Source: Minisyncoccia bacterium (GTDB taxonomy: Bacteria; Patescibacteriota; Minisyncoccia; Phycocordibacterales; UBA918). Taken from it: DNA of 64,000 nt. The DNA lies in the NCBI GenBank assembly GCA_046293175.1, contig JBKBPM010000001.1:4484-68483 (forward strand), read 5' to 3'. Each line of letters starts with the position of its first letter. Positions within the stretch are counted from its first letter, which is position 1. Positions 11,491 to 33,071 of the stretch are shown here, one piece after another. The position numbers were made by a program, and so were the translations under genes. The notes beneath the pieces were generated by a model. That model saw only the letters and a program-made list of their open reading frames with translations, was not told the DNA's origin and did no database searches.

Positions 11491-11643
11491 TTATACTTGA
11501 CAAATTAATCTAGATATGGTAGCTTTTGAGCGCTACCGTTATGGAGCCTGATACCCTTGGTTATCTTTGGGACCGCTATCAGATCTGTACTCGCCTGGGG
11601 ATGTCCCCAATCAAATCCAATGTCAAACTAGAAGGATGATGAC

Positions 11644-12396
11644 ATGTTGAATATCAAAACCTTGGCTCTGATGGGTGCTTTTGCTCTGAGCCCGCTGGCT
11701 GTCTATGCCAACGGGAGCGATGCGTCTTCGGAATCCAATGCGAATTCCCAGTCGACGTCGATCGCTGGCGCTCAGGCGCTCAACAACGTCGAGCTGAACT
11801 CGGTGGCTGTGGCCCTCTCGGGCACGGACTGCACCAATGGCGCCGGTGCCAGCTTCGCCGGTTTCGGTTTCGTCTTCCAGATGACCGATGCCGAGTGCAA
11901 GCAGCTGCGGGCTGCGCTGGCGATGGATACGACCGGCACCGGCTCGAAAGGCTCGGTTCGGGCGCTCATCATCGCCTCGGCTTCGACCAAGGGCTTCGCT
12001 CCACCTCCCGGCTTGCCGGCGACGGTCGAAACCTGCGATTACCGCCACGAGAACCGGACGCTCTTTTTCCGGTCGAGTGCCAACAGCCTCGAAGGCCAGC
12101 TGAGCGATCGTCTTGCGTGCATCATCAGCCGCGAAACCATGCTCGAGGTCAACCTGTCGGCGCTGCGGCACAAGACCGAGGCCCGCTTGGCCAAGCTCTC
12201 TGCTGCTTCGGCCCCGGCGGCCGTCTCGACGAAGAGCAATGGCGCCTCCAGGAGCCTGCTGTCTGTCACCGACACCAAGGTTCGGGTCCGGGTGAATGGG
12301 ATCAACTACCCGATCACCGGCAAGAACTTGGTCGACTGGCAGTCGGGTCGGCCCCTCAACTTCGGTGGTGTGTCGCTCACCAAGTTCGACTTCTGA
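11644..12396 (+). CDS. Secreted, possibly outer-membrane-type beta-rich protein in high-GC islet (ends ...SLTKFDF with C-terminal Phe)
   Basis: Signal peptide MLNIKTLALMGAFALSPLAVYA; alternating hydrophobic pattern near C-terminus; terminal aromatic residue as in diderm OMPs; about 64% GC. Confidence 0.5.
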   Translation: MLNIKTLALMGAFALSPLAVYANGSDASSESNANSQSTSIAGAQALNNVELNSVAVALSGTDCTNGAGASFAGFGFVFQMTDAECKQLRAALAMDTTGTGSKGSVRALIIASASTKGFAPPPGLPATVETCDYRHENRTLFFRSSANSLEGQLSDRLACIISRETMLEVNLSALRHKTEARLAKLSAASAPAAVSTKSNGASRSLLSVTDTKVRVRVNGINYPITGKNLVDWQSGRPLNFGGVSLTKFDF

Positions 12397-12439
12397 CACC
12401 GCACATCAACTGCACAGCGCGCTCGCGCGCTGTGCGCCT

Positions 12440-13322: not shown

Positions 13323-13783
13323 GCTCGCACTGTTCGTTGGAAGTAATTCAGGCCTTCTTTTGAGGTCTATCACTTTCGAAGGGAACACTGCATTTTGACA
13401 ACCTCGCGAAGAAGCATCTGAATCTTTGGTTCAGAAATTTATTCGTGGGAACCAAACTAATTTTGAGGAACTAGTTTTGGTCAATATCACTTATCTGATT
13501 CCCAAAATCAGATAGGTACGTATATTATTTTTTACATTTTTTAAAATGTAGACAAATGGTATGCATCAGCACAAATATAAGCAATTGAATATCGAATATT
13601 CTTTTGTCTTATCCTTAGGTAAATTGTTAGAAAGCAGCGGGAACCAAAGTACAGTACCGCTACATATTCAGTTATGAACTTTCTAGCGCAGATCACAGAA
13701 ATGAAAAATGAAGAATTATAAATGAAAAATTATTTTTTCATTTATAACTTCTCATTCATAATTTCTTTCTTCTGTCTTTAATT

Positions 13784-15232
13784 AGAGTTTGATCCTAGCT
13801 CAGGATGAATGCTGGCGGCGTGGATGAGGCATGCAAGTCGAATGGGTTTAGGCCCATGGCAGACGAGGTAGGAACACGTAGGTACGTACCCAAGAGTCAG
13901 GGATAACCGGCCGAAAGGTCGAATAATACTTGATGGTCCCTTCGGGGTAAAGATTTATCGCTCTTGGAACGGCCTGCGGGCTATCAGCTTGTTGGTAAGG
14001 TAACGGCTTACCAAGGCTACGACGGCTAGGGGAGGTGAGAGCCTGACCCCCACCGATGGAACTGCGACACGGTCCATACTCCTACGGGAGGCTGCAGTCG
14101 AGAATCTTCCGCAATGGACGAAAGTCTGACGGAGCGACGCCGCGTGGTGGATGAAGTCCCTCGGGACGTAAACACCTTTTATGAGGGAGGAAGTTTATTG
14201 ACGTTACCTCATGAATAAGGGGCTCCCAACTCTGTGCCAGCAGGAGCGGTAATACAGAGGCCCCAAGCATTATCCGGATTTACTGGGCGTAAAGGGTGCG
14301 TAGGCGGTTATATTAGTCGGGTGTTAAATCCCGGGGCTCAACCCCGGAATCGCATCCGAAACGGTATAACTAGAATCAGTCAGAGGCAAGCAGAACTCTC
14401 GGTGTAGGGGTGAAATCCGTTGATATCGAGGGGAATACCAAATGCGAAGGCAGCTTGCTGGGACTTGATTGACGCTGAGGCACGAAAGCGTGGGTAGCGA
14501 AGCGGATTAGATACCCGCGTAGTCCACGCCCTAAACGCTGTCTGTTGGCTATAGGGAGTATCGACCCTCTCTGTGGCGAAGTTAACACGTTAAACAGACC
14601 GCCTGGGTAGTACGAGCGCAAGCTTAAAACTCAAAGGAATAGACGGGGGCTCGCACAAGCGGTGGATCATGTGGCTTAATTCGTAGCTAAGCGAAAAACC
14701 TTACCAAGGCTAGAAACTATACTGCACGCTCCGGGAAACCGGAGAAGCCTTCGAGGGTGTATAGCAGGTGATGCATGGCCGTCGTCAGTTCGTGGCTTGA
14801 GCTGTTCCCTTAAGTGGGGAAACGAACGCAACCCTCGTTGCCTGTTACAAGTGTCAGGCGAGACTGCTCCCTCACGGGAGAGGAAGGTGAGGATGACGCC
14901 AGGTCAGCATGTCCCTTGATGCCTTGGGCTGCACACGTGATACAATGGGTGATACAATGGGACGCAATACCGTAAGGTGGAGCAAATCCCCAAAACCATC
15001 CTCAATTCGGATTGAGGTCTGCAACTCGACCTCATGAAGTCGGAATCGCTAGTAATCGTGAATCAGCACGTCACGGTGAATACGTTCCCGAGCCTTGTAC
15101 TCACCGCCCGTCAACTCAAGGGAGTCGGGAGTGCCCGAAGTGCCAGTTTATCTGGTCCTACGGTAAGCTCGATGACAGGGAGTAAGTCGTAACAAGGCAC
15201 GGCTAGCGGAAGCTGGTCGTGGATTAATTCCA
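13784..15232 (+). rRNA. rrs: 16S ribosomal RNA (complete, about 1450 nt), CPR-like divergent
   Basis: agagtttgatcctagctcag 5' end; gtgccagcaggagcggtaatac (515 region variant); ggattagatacccgcgtagtcc; gtactcaccgcccgtcaactc; 3' end gtcgtaacaaggcacggctagcggaagctggtcgtggattaattcc. Confidence 0.93.
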
Positions 15233-15454
15233 ATTGGACACGTCGTTGCGTCTTGGTAACAAGATTGCACATAACGGCTAATTGGTCGATATTAGGTAGC
15301 TCAATTGACTACCTAATGAGTAGACGATACAGAACACTCTGAAGTGGTATCGGACTTTTAGGAAAGACTAAAGCCAAAGGATAAGACAAAAGAGCAGACG
15401 AGCAATTGCTTTTTTTGTACCCTATATTTGTTGCATATTGATATGAAGTGGGTG

Positions 15455-15507: not shown

Positions 15508-15975
15508 TTAGATATCAAAGACTGGCGGCAGCTCGCCCCGGGTGGCGCTTGGTGAACGTGGTTGTGGGCGAGGGGACGTGCATGGGGCGTAACTTGTATA
15601 GTCATCACTCAAATAATCTGGTACGACATCATTCCCGCAGTTATCAAGACCAAGACCATCGGTGAAGATATTAATAATGCCCCAAAACGAGAGAATAAAA
15701 ATGAAGACACCAATACTGTAGAGGGCGAGGTTCTTGGCGTTTTCTCGACCCTCTTCGGTAGCACCTTTAATTATAAAAAAACGAACACCGTTCCAGACAA
15801 AGATCAGAAAAGCAACCCCAAGCAGGAAGGGGATGAGATAATTGTTGAAAAATTGAAACAATACTGGTAGAGCATCTTGTAGACCGCCTGGCCCTGTGGC
15901 CATACTCATACCAGCGGCGATCACCAAAATGATGATCATTCCAAGTCCCATAGACATGCCACTACTATAGCGCAT
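15508..15975 (-). CDS. Small polytopic membrane protein (weak resemblance to TrbC/VirB2-type pilin topology); start placed at MRYSSGMSMG
   Basis: Three hydrophobic helices, Pro/Ser-rich C-terminal tail. Confidence 0.4.
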   Translation of the reverse strand: MRYSSGMSMGLGMIIILVIAAGMSMATGPGGLQDALPVLFQFFNNYLIPFLLGVAFLIFVWNGVRFFIIKGATEEGRENAKNLALYSIGVFIFILSFWGIINIFTDGLGLDNCGNDVVPDYLSDDYTSYAPCTSPRPQPRSPSATRGELPPVFDI

Positions 15976-16010
15976 TTGTGGGCCTTTTTCACTGTTTTGC
16001 TGGGGAATTA

Positions 16011-16038
16011 TTGACTTTTGGCCATTTTTGTGTATAAT
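16011..16038 (+). promoter_or_regulatory. Strong sigma70-like promoter TTGACT-N16-TATAAT
   Basis: ttgacttttggccatttttgtgtataat, followed by SD-bearing small ORF. Confidence 0.5.
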
Positions 16039-16104
16039 ATTAAGTAAGTGGGGTGACCCACAAGGAGCTTGAAAACGCGCCTCGTGGCGCAAAAGGAGGA
16101 AACA

Positions 16105-16279: not shown

Positions 16280-16426
16280 TGACGCAAGAACAAATTGTAG
16301 AGCTGGTACAACGTCGTCCTTGGACGATGATCATTGCAGCTCTCATACTGGTGGCCGTGGTCACGGCGATTGGTTCTGGGATCGAAACCTACATCTACCC
16401 GGTGTTGAAGAGGTGGGGGCTGTGAA
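16280..16426 (+). CDS. 48-aa single-TM small protein in high-GC islet
   Basis: gaggagagagcagaaATG SD; MTQEQIVELVQRRPWTMIIAALILVAVVTAIGSGIETYIYPVLKRWGL; followed by hairpin aggaggcggaatctgccgcctct at about 16577-16605. Confidence 0.35.
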
Positions 16427-16675
16427 GGTTCACCCTCTTGACAGCAATGCAAACCTCCGCGTGAAGCTCAATCGCCGCTCACCCGGCCGATGGTTTCGCA
16501 AGGAAGTGCTGTCTTACTCACTGCATGTGCGAATGACTGTCGTACTGCTCGGGATTTGTGTTCTTTGATGGATGATGTAAGGAGGCGGAATCTGCCGCCT
16601 CTTGCTGCTTGGACATTCGGTCCCGGCAGCTTTTGTTTTATGAGACTATTTGCGGTACAATCTCGTGCATTGCCT

Positions 16676-16782
16676 AGGTGGTGTAATTGGTAGGTGAGAC
16701 AGTGTGGAGCACTGTCGAACGGCGCTTCAGGTGCGTATGCCGCAAGGCGTGGAGGCTGTCATAATCTGGGAGATTATGACAG
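16676..16782 (+). pseudogene. Partial, interrupted duplicate of tRNA-Leu (D-arm, anticodon arm and variable arm) followed by an 11-bp perfect hairpin
   Basis: Shares gtggtgtaattggtag (16 nt) and cgcttcaggtgcgtatgccgcaaggcgtggagg (33 nt) with the intact tRNA-Leu 140 bp downstream. A 29-nt insert replaces ccacgta, and the T-arm and acceptor are replaced by ctgtcataatctgggagattatgacag. Confidence 0.45.
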
Positions 16783-16818
16783 GAAGTTGCTCGGTATTTT
16801 ATAAATTGAAGATATAGT

Positions 16819-16900
16819 GCTGGAGTGGTGTAATTGGTAGCCACGTACGCTTCAGGTGCGTATGCCGCAAGGCGTGGAGGTTCAAGTCCTCTCTCCAGCA
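16819..16900 (+). tRNA. tRNA-Leu (anticodon CAG), long variable arm, no encoded CCA
   Basis: Acceptor GCTGGAG/CTCCAGC, D-loop TAATTGGTAG, anticodon loop TTCAGGT, variable arm TGCCGCAAGGCGTG, T-loop TTCAAGT. Confidence 0.8.
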
Positions 16901-17220
16901 CTATGTATTCAATAAGATACCAGCAACCTATACAGATTCTGTAAGAATCAAGTCCTCTCCTAGATACAAACATAAAACCTTTCGAGTCAACTCAAAAGGT
17001 TTTATGCTACTTCATTTGAAATCTTTTTGCGTCTTTTGTCGTTACGAGTTACTAAGTATAATTTTCACAAGTTCAATTATACTAAGTACTCTTGACCACG
17101 ACTCACGGTTCGCAAGCTCACAACGTTCCGTCTCGGACAAAGGTCGTATCTACCAAAACTAGTAAATACTAACAACTAAAAACACCATTCCATAAGAATG
17201 GTGTTTTTAGTTGTTTCCTT

Positions 17221-17259
17221 TGTCCGCGCTCTAGGATTCGAACCTAGGACCTTTCGAGT
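17221..17259. repeat. 39-bp perfect direct repeat copy of the 3' portion of tRNA-Ile (second copy 17390-17428 is inside the intact tRNA)
   Basis: tgtccgcgctctaggattcgaacctaggacctttcgagt identical at both loci. A further 19-bp near-identical copy of the tRNA 3'-flank (tctttttgcgtcttttgtc) lies at 17021-17040 versus 17375-17393. Confidence 0.8.
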
Positions 17260-17391
17260 GAGCCAGTTTGGGAAACTGGCGCAAGACTCATCCTGAATCT
17301 TTTGGAGCTTTGCGAACAAAAGAAGCGGATGAGTGGACAGCTCCTGTAAGGAGTCAGTCGAATGCTTTTAAATGTTCTTTTGCGTCTTTTG

Positions 17392-17465
17392 TCCGCGCTC
17401 TAGGATTCGAACCTAGGACCTTTCGAGTATCAGTCGAATGCTCTAGCCAACTGAGCTAAGCGCGG
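17392..17465 (-). tRNA. tRNA-Ile (anticodon GAT)
   Basis: Reverse complement CCGCGCTTAGCTCAGTTGGCTAGAGCATTCGACTGATACTCGAAAGGTCCTAGGTTCGAATCCTAGAGCGCGGA folds as cloverleaf with loop CTGATAC. Confidence 0.8.
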
Positions 17466-17638
17466 ACAAAAGAAACAAAGAACATTGTAGCCAACCCTAT
17501 CAGCTCATAAATATCGCTGATTCGCTTCGCGACCGGAAAAATTACTATTCGCAATTTTTAGCTCGCGCGGACAAGGGCTTCTACGAAGCTTCTACAATGA
17601 CCGCTACTATAGCAGATTATTTTAGAAATTGTAAGGGG

Positions 17639-18214
17639 TTACAGGAAAAGGCGAAAGGCAGTATGCATGCCGTAGGCGTAGATACTTTGGTTGACTAAGT
17701 TACCCAAAAACAGCGGGATCATCATCGTTCGCCACGAGACGCCAAGTAAGGCGAGGGGGATGATCAGGGCTTCGTTTGGAATTGATATAAACGCAGCATA
17801 AAGAAAGATGATCGGAATAAGCCACTTCCGGTGGTGCTTGTGGATATGCTCGAGGCGGGTGATGAACTTGGGATATTTATGAGCGAGAGTGTCACGGCTG
17901 ATGCGGCCAAAGACATAGCCAATGAAGTCGGCGAGCAGGGTCCCAATGGTGAGGGCAAAAATGATACCAATAAGGTTCAGTCCCGCGGCGGTGAAGATGG
18001 GGGTGAAGGCAACAGCGGGGATGGGCAAGATAACATTAAGTCCTGCGATAGTTGCAATGACGACTACCCCGAAATAACCCAGAGAAGCCACCTGTGCCTG
18101 TAAGTCGGGTGTACGCAAAAGATACTCAGCAAAAAAGAGCGCACCAAAAGCCACGACAAGGAGTATTGTCAGGAGAAACAGACCAAAGAGCACTTGTTTC
18201 TTCCGCTTGACCAT
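17639..18214 (-). CDS. DedA/VTT (SNARE-associated, TVP38/TMEM64-like) family membrane protein
   Basis: 4-5 TM helices, LPIPAVAF ... FIGYVFGRISR motif region resembling the DedA core. Confidence 0.5.
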   Translation of the reverse strand: MVKRKKQVLFGLFLLTILLVVAFGALFFAEYLLRTPDLQAQVASLGYFGVVVIATIAGLNVILPIPAVAFTPIFTAAGLNLIGIIFALTIGTLLADFIGYVFGRISRDTLAHKYPKFITRLEHIHKHHRKWLIPIIFLYAAFISIPNEALIIPLALLGVSWRTMMIPLFLGNLVNQSIYAYGMHTAFRLFL

Positions 18215-27890: not shown

Positions 27891-29786
27891 ATGACGCAGT
27901 TTGACCCAGAAAAAATCACCTTCTTTGCCAAAACCGACGCTCGGGGGAAAGTTATACCCTTTGGTATCAAAGCCCGTGACCGTCAGCGACACATGTACGT
28001 CATCGGGAAGACAGGTATGGGTAAGTCGACCTTGCTTGAAAATATGGCTGCCCAAGATATCCAAAGTGGGGAAGGGATGGCTTTTATCGACCCGCACGGT
28101 TCAGCCGCCGAAAAGCTCCTTGAGTATATTCCGGAACATCGAGTAAACGACGTCATCTATTTTGCGCCATTTGATCTTGATAATCCAGTCTCGTTTAACG
28201 TGATGGAAGACGTTGGTCCAGATAAACGTCATCTCGTAGTGTCCGGCCTCATGTCGACCTTCAAGAAGATATGGGTTGATGCCTGGAGTGCCCGTATGGA
28301 GTACATTCTTACCAACGCGCTTTTGGCCCTCATTGAGTACCCTGATACAACACTCCTGTCAGTCAACCGTCTGTTTTCAGATAAGCACTTCCGCAACCGC
28401 GTCGTTGACTACGTGAAGGATCCAGCCGTAAAAGCTTTTTGGGTGGAAGAATTTGCGGCATATACCGATCGTTTTGCGGCTGAAGCCTTGCCAGCGATTC
28501 AAAACAAAATCGGTCAGTTTACGGGGAACCCCCTCATTCGTAATATCATCGGCCAACCACACTCAAGTTTTGATATTCGTAAAATTATGGATGAGAAAAA
28601 GATTCTCATTATTAACCTCTCTAAGGGGTTGGTAGGAGATACTAATGCGAACCTGCTTGGGTCCATGCTTACTACCCGTATTTACCTCGCGGCCATGAGT
28701 CGCGCTGACCTACTACCGGCGGTGATGAAGACAATGCCAAACTTCTACTTCTACGTGGACGAGTTTCAATCGTTTGCGAACGCCACTTTTGCGAATATTC
28801 TCTCTGAAGCGCGTAAGTACCATCTCAACCTCATTATTGCGCACCAGTACATCGAACAGATGGAAGAGGATGTCCGTAATGCGGTCTTTGGTAACGTCGG
28901 AACGACGGTAGCGTTTCGCGTTGGGCCATTTGATGCGGAGGTGCTCGAGACCATCTTCACGCCACGGTTTTTGGCAGCGGACCTCGTGAATCTTGGTGCC
29001 TATCAGATTTATCTGACACTCATGATTGATGGGATTGGCTCGCAACCATTTTCGGCCGTGACCTTGCCCGAGATCCCACCGCCACGGATTTCGTGTCGAG
29101 ATATGGTGATAGCGGCGAGCCGCAAGAACTTTGCGACTCCGCGTCCGATTGTCGAAAAAATCATCACCGATCTGCATACGCCAGTTGAACCACCAGTTAA
29201 GCCACCAAAGCCTGATATACCAAAAAGCGACACTCACAAAGGTGAAGTGAAGTCGACAGGTGCTTCGAGTTCTGCAAGTAGTAGTACACCAAAGACTGAC
29301 AAACCGGTACCAACCGCACCAGCCCGAATCGACCGGCCAGCTCCAAAGCCAAAGCCAAAACCAACCAATCGCCCGGTAGGCTCTGAAGCTAAACCGAAGC
29401 CGACACCAACCCCAGTTCCAACGGTGACCGCCGATGGGCTCAAGGCTGTGCTCGCTCGTATTGCTGCTGCGACCAACGATACCAATGGCAAGAAAGGCGA
29501 AGATAAGCCCGCAGCAGCAACGTCAAAGGTTGAAGCAACGGCACCAGCTACTGATCATCGAAGTGCCTTGCGGTCGGTGCTTGGTTCTGTACTTGAAACA
29601 GCGTCAGCGCCACAAATGACGGTACCTGCTCCAGTCGAAAAACCTGAACCAAATCCACAGTCAACAGCACCAGCTTCAGCTCCAGTAGCTCCTGATACTG
29701 CCTATATATCTGATGCGGCTGAACCAGATATCAAAGTGCTCAAAAAAATCCTCAGGAATGATGCTAAGGTCAAATCTCCATTTTGA
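27891..29786 (+). CDS. VirD4/TraD/TrwB-like (type IV coupling protein superfamily) P-loop ATPase with long Pro/Lys/Thr/Ala-rich disordered C-terminal tail
   Basis: Walker A YVIGKTGMGKSTLL; Walker B FYFYVDEFQSF; ARKYHLNLIIAHQYIEQM downstream motif; C-terminal 200 aa low complexity (PKPKPKPT, PTPTPVPT). Confidence 0.55.
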   Translation: MTQFDPEKITFFAKTDARGKVIPFGIKARDRQRHMYVIGKTGMGKSTLLENMAAQDIQSGEGMAFIDPHGSAAEKLLEYIPEHRVNDVIYFAPFDLDNPVSFNVMEDVGPDKRHLVVSGLMSTFKKIWVDAWSARMEYILTNALLALIEYPDTTLLSVNRLFSDKHFRNRVVDYVKDPAVKAFWVEEFAAYTDRFAAEALPAIQNKIGQFTGNPLIRNIIGQPHSSFDIRKIMDEKKILIINLSKGLVGDTNANLLGSMLTTRIYLAAMSRADLLPAVMKTMPNFYFYVDEFQSFANATFANILSEARKYHLNLIIAHQYIEQMEEDVRNAVFGNVGTTVAFRVGPFDAEVLETIFTPRFLAADLVNLGAYQIYLTLMIDGIGSQPFSAVTLPEIPPPRISCRDMVIAASRKNFATPRPIVEKIITDLHTPVEPPVKPPKPDIPKSDTHKGEVKSTGASSSASSSTPKTDKPVPTAPARIDRPAPKPKPKPTNRPVGSEAKPKPTPTPVPTVTADGLKAVLARIAAATNDTNGKKGEDKPAAATSKVEATAPATDHRSALRSVLGSVLETASAPQMTVPAPVEKPEPNPQSTAPASAPVAPDTAYISDAAEPDIKVLKKILRNDAKVKSPF

Positions 29787-32812: not shown

Positions 32813-33071
32813 GTGAGTTCGTCCAAAAATCCTTCAGACTTTGTTGCGCTACACTCAGAAACACTCATCGTTAGAAAGTCTGGGAGAATTTCGCAAGAGG
32901 TTGCCAGCTATTTTGAAAAAAGCGACAACCTGTACAGCTTCTGTAAGAAGTGTCTATATACGCTTCATACTTCCTCACTCGCGCTTCGCGTCTATGGAGC
33001 TTCTGAGACCATACTCTTTAGATTTCTGAGGGATTTTTGGCAGGCGTTAATCGTGATATAGTAGAATTCTT

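Follow-up and report, generated by a model that had tools for sequence, protein, structure and literature searches.

Partial tRNA copies as insertion footprints: small structured cassettes probably nested in the resident tRNA-Ile and tRNA-Leu genes of a Paceibacteria genome

tRNA genes are classic landing pads for mobile DNA. The stretch of 64,000 nt analysed here, hereafter the window (assembly GCA_046293175.1, contig JBKBPM010000001.1, positions 4,484 to 68,483), comes from an ultra-small Paceibacteria bacterium of the candidate phyla radiation (CPR), and holds two tRNA genes identified by ARAGORN and Rfam: tRNA-Leu(CAG) at 16819–16901 on the plus strand and tRNA-Ile(GAU) at 17392–17465 on the minus strand, both 1.6–2.2 kb downstream of the 16S rRNA gene. 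Each of them is surrounded by partial copies of itself. These copies are insertion footprints at a tRNA hotspot, not attachment-site (att) scars of an integrase, and the DNA between them is the element itself. We consider it probable that small structured cassettes have inserted into loops of the resident tRNA genes in a nested, self-compensating manner, with one cassette per gene carrying a replacement tRNA.

The analysis covers these 64 kb and windows of 3–14 kb from ~25 relatives (designated by L numbers), whose neighbourhoods were collected through homologues of the adjacent VTT-domain gene and through sequence patterns. Around each intact tRNA the fragments are collinear and stand in one copy; the resident type is found intact in relatives; the modules between the fragments are conserved and covary; units are gained or lost between close relatives; and one module of the same family, here called the I module, lies away from any tRNA at a site that is empty in relatives.

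Architecture of the tRNA-Ile and tRNA-Leu units

The fragments around each intact tRNA sum to exactly one extra collinear tRNA, 5' pieces included. The longest of them, a 39-nt perfect direct repeat of the tRNA-Ile 3' portion already reported in the initial annotation (17221–17259 and 17390–17428), was confirmed; it begins in the anticodon loop, at tRNA position 37, and extends to 49 nt at 94% identity (17211–17259 versus 17380–17428). The interrupted partial tRNA-Leu is equally real, and consists of two perfect repeats (16678–16693 with 16825–16840, 16 nt; 16723–16755 with 16848–16880, 33 nt). The hairpin described beside it exists, with 12 bp (16756–16767 paired with 16771–16782) instead of 11, and so does the separate copy of the tRNA-Ile 3' flank, although it is an exact match of 16 nt (17025–17040 with 17378–17393) and not one of 19 nt starting at 17021. 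Other pieces had been overlooked: 13 nt corresponding to tRNA-Ile positions 23–35 (17354–17366 with 17430–17442), 12 nt of the T loop and T stem of tRNA-Leu (16948–16959 with 16882–16893), and the 5' acceptor strand of tRNA-Ile, GTCCGCGC, at 17565–17572, followed by the D-loop sequence GTTGGCTA at ~17488–17495. All of these pieces stand in tRNA order and, by our own arithmetic, the number of exact 12-mer pairs expected by chance in 1.3 kb is ~0.05, and far lower for 13- to 39-mers. In an independent short-read run (SRR31360863), unitigs are 100% identical to the window and end inside the repeats, at 17399 and 16752; the repeats are therefore real, and break assemblies.

The tRNA-Ile unit lies on the minus strand, and its order is promoter, leader with the acceptor 5' strand, a module termed M1, the D-loop sequence, and a long stem that ends in the intact tRNA-Ile, followed by positions 23–35, an I module (I-A) at position 36, positions 37–73 with the trailer, and a terminator-like hairpin. 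The promoter found by scanning (17606–17635; CTTACA, 18 nt, TATAGT) belongs to a cccTTACA...tgcTATAGT block present upstream of the tRNA-Ile unit in at least 12 related loci. The resident leader and 5' acceptor strand of the split outer tRNA-Ile (AGAAGCCCTT-GTCCGCGC, 17565–17582) were recognized from the leader of relatives and from the minimum free energy (MFE) fold. This leader is found directly 5' of the intact tRNA-Ile in L072, L075, and L080, where it pairs with the trailer ACA(R)GGGGCTTTT, and is predicted by the MFE fold of the window to pair with 17217–17229. M1, delimited by alignment and a covariance model, is an 86-nt module of three hairpins (17487–17572) that occupies the D-loop position of the outer tRNA-Ile and ends in GTTGGCTA.

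The stem carrying the intact tRNA-Ile has its 5' strand at 17466–17486 (AATGTTCTTTGTTTCTTTTGT) and its 3' strand at 17371–17391 (CAAAAGACGCAAAAGAACATT), both supported by repeats (the inverted repeats I3 and I12 for the 5' strand) and paired in the MFE fold. The leader type of the former also flanks nested tRNA-Ile genes in L012, L009, and L019, and the stem core ACAAAAGACGCAAAAG recurs at the 3' end of a further conserved stretch, X (at 17025–17040), which accounts for the flank copy of the initial annotation. The intact, apparently cassette-borne tRNA-Ile(GAU) at the tip (17392–17465) scores 72.2 bits in Rfam. Beyond the stem, the outer fragment AGCATTCGACTGA (positions 23–35, 17354–17366, the exact 13-nt repeat) is followed by I-A, a three-hairpin module of 94 nt (17260–17353), which sits in the anticodon loop of the outer copy. 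Its hairpins are a (17341–17353, loop TTACA), b (17286–17334), and c (17262–17280, loop CCC). I-A thus interrupts a tRNA copy between positions 35 and 37, instead of separating two att blocks. The outer 3' half (positions 37–73) with the resident trailer AAAGG covers 17216–17259 and includes the 39-nt repeat; the single tRNA-Ile of L016 has this outer trailer and not the inner one. A 20-bp hairpin with a T run (17171–17215), resembling a terminator, closes the unit, which folds in silico into nested cloverleaves (MFE −174 kcal/mol, z = −11.6). A 17-bp hairpin at 16971–17006 (inverted repeat I5), conserved in L016, L075, and L072, is common to both convergent units and resembles a bidirectional terminator.

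The tRNA-Leu unit, on the plus strand, follows the same principle, with the acceptor strand and D arm, a 29-nt hairpin, the anticodon loop, variable arm and 5' strand of the T stem, a second I module (I-B), and the rest of the T arm with the acceptor 3' strand. The outer 5' fragment (acceptor GCCTAGG and D arm, 16672–16693) is identical at 22/22 positions to the intact, un-nested tRNA-Leu of L080, and the promoter and leader of the outer copy also precede tRNA-Leu in L080, L075, and L019. The 29-nt hairpin (16694–16722) replaces nucleotides of the 3' strand of the D stem and the 5' strand of the anticodon stem; L019 and the L016 lineage have it as well, with a compensatory change, and the outer copy of L075 lacks it. 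The next outer fragment, the 33-nt perfect repeat already mentioned, spans 16723–16755. I-B (16756–16948) lies in the T loop of the outer tRNA-Leu as the reverse complement of the I-A type, and comprises c' (16756–16782, loop GGG), a long hairpin (16785–16929), and a' (16936–16948, loop TGTAA). The intact tRNA-Leu(CAG), probably cassette-borne (16819–16901), is found at the tip of this long hairpin, while the intact tRNA-Ile has a long stem of its own. The acceptor of this inner tRNA-Leu, GCTGGAG, is shared by 3/3 of the nested tRNA-Leu genes aligned (window, L019, and L075), as opposed to GCCTAGG, GCCCAGG, GCCGTGG or GCCGGAG in un-nested ones. The outer copy ends with its 3' fragment (CAAGTCCTCT-CCTAGAT, 16949–16965). 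This unit is also predicted to fold into a nested cloverleaf (MFE −123 kcal/mol, z = −6.3). Between the window and L019, the fragments and modules surrounding the nested tRNA-Leu (the Leu shell) are 90.5% identical over 305 nt, and 13/14 changed pairs still pair; as the structure used for this count was predicted from the window sequence, the count is biased towards it.

Open reading frames (ORFs) overlapping this region, such as 16674–16973 and 17268–17459, were treated as spurious, because they overlap tRNAs and hairpins and because the gene calls of the same stretch in relatives have no Pfam match.

Occupancy in relatives and conservation of the modules

Relatives show occupancy polymorphism at these genes, in agreement with the recombination hotspot proposed in the initial annotation, and the tRNA-Ile locus is found in four states: naked, with M1 and the carrying stem only, plain with a tandem outer copy, and window-like. 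The closest relative, L072 (VTT gene 95.8% identical at the nucleotide level), represents the naked state, with the promoter, the leader AGAAGCCCCTGT, the tRNA, and the trailer ACAGGGGCTTTT. On the same strand lies an intact tRNA-Leu, behind which stand an insert of 140 nt and an 18-nt repeat of the tRNA-Leu 3' end. In L016, L025, and L048 (coding genes 76–82% identical), M1 and the carrying stem are present and exactly the 169 bp corresponding to 17260–17428 are missing, and a plain tRNA-Leu (acceptor GCCGGAG) stands behind a 5' remnant of the outer copy. L075, L076, and L077 (VTT gene 76.6%) hold a plain tRNA-Ile followed in tandem by an outer copy that contains a variant of M1 and an I-A module, together with a Leu shell like that of the window without the 29-nt insert. 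The tandem arrangement of tRNA-Ile also occurs in L082 and in L080 (VTT gene 72.4%), the latter with an intact, un-nested tRNA-Leu of acceptor GCCTAGG. Finally, L019 (coding genes 70–78%) resembles the window at both genes, with two more modules at tRNA-Ile. Separate studies arrived independently at assemblies with the same architectures (L016 with L025 and L048, L038 with L044, L045 with L053, and L075 with L076 and L077). More broadly, exact matches to the tRNA-Ile 3' half were found in 18 species-representative genomes, all of them Patescibacteria/CPR and mostly Paceibacteria, 2 of which carry the block twice, as the window does.

These states indicate which copy is the resident one. The outer tRNA-Leu exons of the window align end to end with the intact tRNA-Leu of L080, and the nested tRNA-Leu genes share the other acceptor; therefore, the outer copy is the resident gene, and the inner one came with the cassette. 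In L075, compensatory pairs distinguish the outer tRNA-Leu from the inner one, which means that the outer copy once worked as a tRNA. Gene conversion need not be invoked to explain why inner and outer copies match, since what they share is conserved tRNA sequence and since the two copies do diverge in L075. Likewise, the plain tRNA-Ile of L072, L075, and L080 and the outer copy of the window stand between the strands of the leader/trailer helix AGAAGCCCYTGT...ACARGGGCTTTT, whereas the leader and trailer of the inner tRNA-Ile differ from it and are common to the cassettes of L012 and L009 and to X. The promoter of the window is 98.7% identical to that of L075 but only 86.5% to that of the closer L072, an incongruence with relatedness which indicates that whole-locus variants have evidently been exchanged between lineages.

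Other small rearrangements were observed at these loci. A palindromic insert of ~105 nt (ends CCCGTTAGAAGT...ACTTCTAACGGG) separates the VTT gene from the tRNA-Ile promoter in L016 (7200–7330) and L075 (3577–3682) and is absent from the window and L072, representing another small insertion polymorphism. On the reverse strand of L019 (~300–560), a block of ~170 nt is tandemly duplicated, each block starting with the 3' end of tRNA-Leu (CAAGTCCTCTCCTGGGCA) and holding an inverted copy of the T arm (GAGGACTTGAA); an insert related to it follows tRNA-Leu in L072 and L082. In L011, a scaffold gap of 100 N (1172–1271) lies inside tRNA-Ile, beside a 69-nt direct repeat; the repeats defeated the assembly, so ARAGORN calls no tRNA there.

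M1 is the best-defined of the modules between the fragments. In an alignment of 16 sequences (A1), 16 of the 25 predicted pairs show compensatory changes, 98.8% of the cells are paired (78.5% in shuffles), and the covariation score is 0.595, compared with 0.191 in shuffles (0/500 reach it) and at most 0.138 in slid controls. The covariance model built from it (R1) finds one copy in the window, at 102 bits, and scores 61–70 bits at loci outside the seed (L075, L080, and L082). M1 has been found exclusively in the D-loop context of tRNA-Ile, in every one of ~20 cases, and is old, with a mean column identity of 67%. A metagenome scan with an M1 18-mer returned 47 loci, 8 of which are real (from three lineages), the rest being chance matches.

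On the other hand, I modules are found in anticodon loops, T loops, and the variable region, in both orientations. Their layout comprises hairpin a (loop TTACA), a linker (CTGTACA), the long hairpin b, the motif (T)CTTGC, and hairpin c with a C-rich loop. The 15 instances tabulated hold 13 different hairpin-c stems and 12 different basal stems of hairpin b, nearly all of them fully paired (the c stems without exception), in a table that was segmented by hand and has one mis-registered row (hairpin b of the L019 tRNA-Leu). In some of these modules hairpin b holds a tRNA at its tip, which is tRNA-Ile in L012, L009, and L002 and tRNA-Leu in the window, L019, and L075. Sequence conservation is higher in the modules than in the coding genes beside them: the I-A copies of the window and L075 are 95.7% identical, compared with 76.6% for the adjacent VTT gene, and two of the four differences between them make up one compensatory pair, while the 90.5% identity of the Leu shell with L019 contrasts with 70–78% for the genes. 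The −35 box of the tRNA promoter, CTTACA, recalls the TTACA loop of hairpin a present in every I module (17341–17353, 16936–16948, and 32937–32951 in the window), which may be a coincidence.

A third I copy of the window stands free of tRNA genes, as an antisense unit of ~240 nt (32816–33056, minus strand; core module 32871–32951) flanked by two GT4 glycosyltransferase genes, with inverted repeats of ~20 nt (CCAAAAATCC.TCAGA) at its ends. The spacer that holds it measures 259 nt in the window and 15 nt in L069, L070, and L071, where the glycosyltransferase is 91% and 84% identical. Since relatives have 15 nt at this site, the module family has been gained or lost as DNA. A hairpin of this unit, CGCGAAGCGCG, is reminiscent of the middle hairpin of M1. 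The possibility that GGG/CCC hairpins are a dispersed repeat was rejected, as they are confined in the window to the two tRNA loci and the free I unit.

The third family, X (17021–17165, minus strand), is a conserved structured non-coding stretch of ~145 nt with a leader and trailer of the tRNA-Ile type (tttGTCCGAG...CTCGTAACGACAAAAGACGC) and twin ACTTAGTA motifs. It is conserved in L016, L038, L004, and L075 (89.7% identity), and is found inside the tRNA-Ile-carrying stem in L016 and L038, so that it may be a cassette with a different cargo. X has no Rfam match, and the Rfam searches of 16400–17800 (E up to 10) and of seven loci (at the gathering score) matched only tRNAs and the 16S rRNA, apart from weak miRNA and plastid matches that are plain hairpins. 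M1, the I module, and X are thus three conserved structured non-coding families absent from Rfam, in genomes otherwise considered streamlined.

Proposed cassette insertion and the competing explanations

In the explanation favoured here, the partial copies would be pieces of the original tRNA-Ile and tRNA-Leu genes of the locus, interrupted by M1 in the D loop and an I module in the anticodon loop of tRNA-Ile, and by the 29-nt hairpin in the D arm and an I module in the T loop of tRNA-Leu. The complete replacement tRNA, held on a long stem, would allow the cell to keep a working tRNA, with the resident gene surviving as collinear fragments around it. The whole unit would be transcribed from the tRNA promoter as one nested-cloverleaf precursor, from which the inner tRNA would be released by the ordinary end-processing enzymes. 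Loss may take place by recombination between tRNA-identical segments, restoring a plain tRNA, and is directly suggested by L016 and L072, because their plain tRNAs carry the flanks of the outer copy. Gain, in turn, could result from loop-targeted insertion or from an exchange of the locus, by homologous recombination, for DNA of other Paceibacteria.

Several points weigh against this explanation. Neither a mobilising enzyme nor a free form of the element was found in the material analysed, and the insertions replace 1–7 nt, with no target-site duplication seen. The direction of the events (insertion or deletion) is drawn by parsimony from ~25 loci, and a single 64-kb portion of this genome is covered. 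The three I copies of the window are divergent, and are therefore not recent transpositions. Moreover, the constancy of its context makes M1 look like a functional-RNA domain rather than a roaming element, and the fact that the modules are more conserved than genes could reflect selection by the host for an RNA function and not horizontal spread.

These last points are shared with the strongest competitor, a functional composite RNA in which outer fragments and modules form an ornate, tRNA-derived non-coding shell kept by the host, with the cloverleaf as a hub presenting M1 and the I modules, and the nested tRNA simply co-transcribed and cut out. Strong covariation with conserved loops, modules more conserved than adjacent genes, a single promoter-to-terminator unit with pairing ends and a marked folding score (z = −11.6), and a context of M1 that is constant in ~20 genomes all speak for it, as does a precedent, the GOLLD RNA, whose linker can hold tRNAs (PMC12286853). 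Complementarity also exists between the loops of I-A (UUACA, CCC) and I-B (UGUAA, GGG), but any two inverted copies of a sequence would show it, which deprives it of independent weight, and a kissing-loop docking of I-A with I-B was set aside for this reason. A single co-dependent shell RNA was favoured on the basis of covariation and folds, and was then downgraded because the halves of the tRNA-Ile unit occur independently (L016 has the 5' part only), the closest relative, L072, has neither, and the site of the free I unit is empty in relatives. The variation between nested and tandem arrangements across genomes, an antisense I unit between glycosyltransferase genes, and modules in both orientations are further difficulties, and this explanation is regarded as rather unlikely. 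Nevertheless, the cassette origin and the functional-RNA reading are compatible with each other. A broader proposal that joins them is tentative, and on balance we doubt it: that the I modules, with or without a tRNA at the tip, are a new class of non-coding, self-compensating mobile elements that home to cognate tRNA loops and replace the gene with their own copy, so that the host cannot lose the element without losing the tRNA, and that the split resident tRNA and its modules have been co-opted as an ornate tRNA-scaffold RNA, whose complementary loops (UUACA/UGUAA, CCC/GGG) dock modules and, in this genome, the Ile and Leu transcripts.

The attL/attR reading of the initial annotation, by which integrated elements have decayed or been deleted down to 130–350 bp, is largely refuted by the fragment layout and is now very unlikely. 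The direct repeat of the tRNA-Ile 3' part (39/49 nt) does begin in the anticodon loop and the Leu fragment in the T loop, which are reportedly sublocations favoured by integrases; relatives do show empty sites; and L072 has an intact tRNA-Leu followed by its 140-nt insert and 18-nt 3' copy. However, an integrase duplicates only the block from the crossover to the tRNA 3' end, whereas in the window 5' fragments (acceptor 5' strand, D loop, and 5' strand of the anticodon stem) are present too, with each tRNA segment occurring once and in order in the outer copy and I-A inserted within it, all of which argues against att scars. Nor is the intervening DNA a decaying remnant: the part of the annotation that stands is that DNA was inserted at tRNA genes, but this DNA consists of conserved structured modules. 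In none of the ~25 related loci are the repeats separated by a larger element with genes, the Ile and Leu blocks have no matching phage attachment site (attP) in viral contigs, where the I-module 20-mer and the M1 pattern also gave no matches, and, as initially stated, no integrase is present in the window: ~50 of its 58 ORFs of at least 90 residues were scanned against Pfam, with no recombinase or transposase match and with about a dozen lacking any match. Units of 94–169 bp would also, in our judgement, be very small for a circular recombination substrate.

It is highly improbable, too, that the modules are introns whose removal joins the outer fragments into a second tRNA-Ile or tRNA-Leu. 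Their positions are intron-like (D loop, anticodon loop, variable region, and T loop), the fragments match the tRNA exactly, and CPR rRNA genes are known to carry insertions. Splicing was rejected because the fragments do not join into a canonical tRNA: those of tRNA-Ile would lack U8, C13, G22, and U36, those of tRNA-Leu 7 nt of the D and anticodon stems and 2 nt of the T loop, and the outer copy of L012 has extra anticodon-stem nucleotides and no anticodon. No group I intron or other ribozyme was matched in Rfam, and modules of one family stand in both orientations. An assembly artefact, or a plain tandem duplication followed by random decay, deserves just as little credence. Repeats do break short-read assemblies, as the gap in L011 illustrates, but assemblies made independently in different studies show the same architectures, structure and covariation are seen in the unique parts, and random decay would not alternate perfectly conserved segments with unrelated sequence.

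Genomic surroundings, implications, and comparison with known systems

The 16S rRNA gene (13777–15234) is solitary, without an adjoining 23S. tRNA-Ile, which has a promoter of its own, lies 1–2 kb from it; the two genes occupy opposite strands in the window, L013, L075, L080, and L082 and share a strand in L014, L002, and L012, an arrangement that looks like a dispersed remnant of the rRNA operon spacer. Between 11000 and 13000, the GC content reaches 0.55–0.59, compared with ~0.48 elsewhere in the window, and long ORFs overlap on both strands (11623–12399, minus; 11644–12396, plus), neither with a Pfam match; this is probably one of the foreign islets mentioned in the initial annotation. A small protein resembling a type IV secretion pilin is encoded at 15508–16092 (minus strand), with a similar gene in the 16S–tRNA interval of L068 and L082, and a protein resembling the TrwB coupling protein at 27891–29786 (plus strand).

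Two escapes are known for sequences inserted in tRNA genes, namely carrying the tRNA 3' end (integrative elements) and splicing out (introns). A third solution appears here, in which a miniature non-coding cassette nests in a tRNA loop and supplies a complete tRNA as a substitute. Should this hold for Paceibacteria in general, it would offer a route by which tRNA genes with foreign acceptor stems pass from one lineage to another, assembly breaks at such loci would be explained, and caution would be advisable before partial tRNAs are taken for att scars in every case. Full-text searches of the literature yielded no description of nested tRNAs, of these modules, or of such an insertion and replacement of a tRNA gene.

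Integrative elements at tRNA genes—phages, integrative and conjugative elements, genomic islands, and cis-mobilizable elements—share with the cassettes the insertion into anticodon or T loops, the repair of the damage by tRNA sequence carried on the insert, the tRNA segments as direct repeats, and the empty sites in relatives. However, the inserts of the window are non-coding, measure 90–250 nt, lack an integrase, and bring a whole tRNA on a stem instead of only a 3' block; resident 5' fragments remain, and several modules nest in different loops of one gene. The group I introns in the anticodon loops of bacterial tRNAs, as well as the multi-intron, split, and permuted tRNAs of archaea, also interrupt loops, sometimes several of them, with structured RNA. 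Unlike these, the modules described here have no ribozyme core detectable with Rfam, the fragments cannot be joined into a canonical tRNA, and function would be preserved by a nested second gene rather than by splicing.

Miniature inverted-repeat transposable elements and the repetitive extragenic palindromes (REP) and their mosaic elements (BIME) resemble the I modules in being small, non-coding, and hairpin-rich, in standing in either orientation, and in their insertion polymorphism, and the free unit has inverted ends. The differences are the few and divergent copies (three in 64 kb), the lack of a visible target-site duplication, the preference for tRNA loops, and the ability to carry a tRNA gene. 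We know of no cognate transposase for the I modules, and none was found among the ~50 ORFs of the window scanned against Pfam.

GOLLD and ROOL are also large multi-hairpin non-coding RNAs associated with tRNA genes, and GOLLD, which can hold tRNAs covalently in its linker, is the nearest published analogue found (PMC12286853). Nevertheless, the covariance models of these families had no match in the Rfam scans of the window region and the loci, the context in the window is chromosomal housekeeping rather than phage, and the scaffold is a split tRNA. In a similar way, tmRNA and YrlA/Y RNA have 5' and 3' ends that pair in an acceptor-like helix beside a T arm, with large insertions in between. 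No family model of either matched in Rfam and ARAGORN called no tmRNA in the window; contrary to those RNAs, the tRNA-like part in the window is a recent copy of the neighbouring tRNA, and its halves are gained and lost independently.

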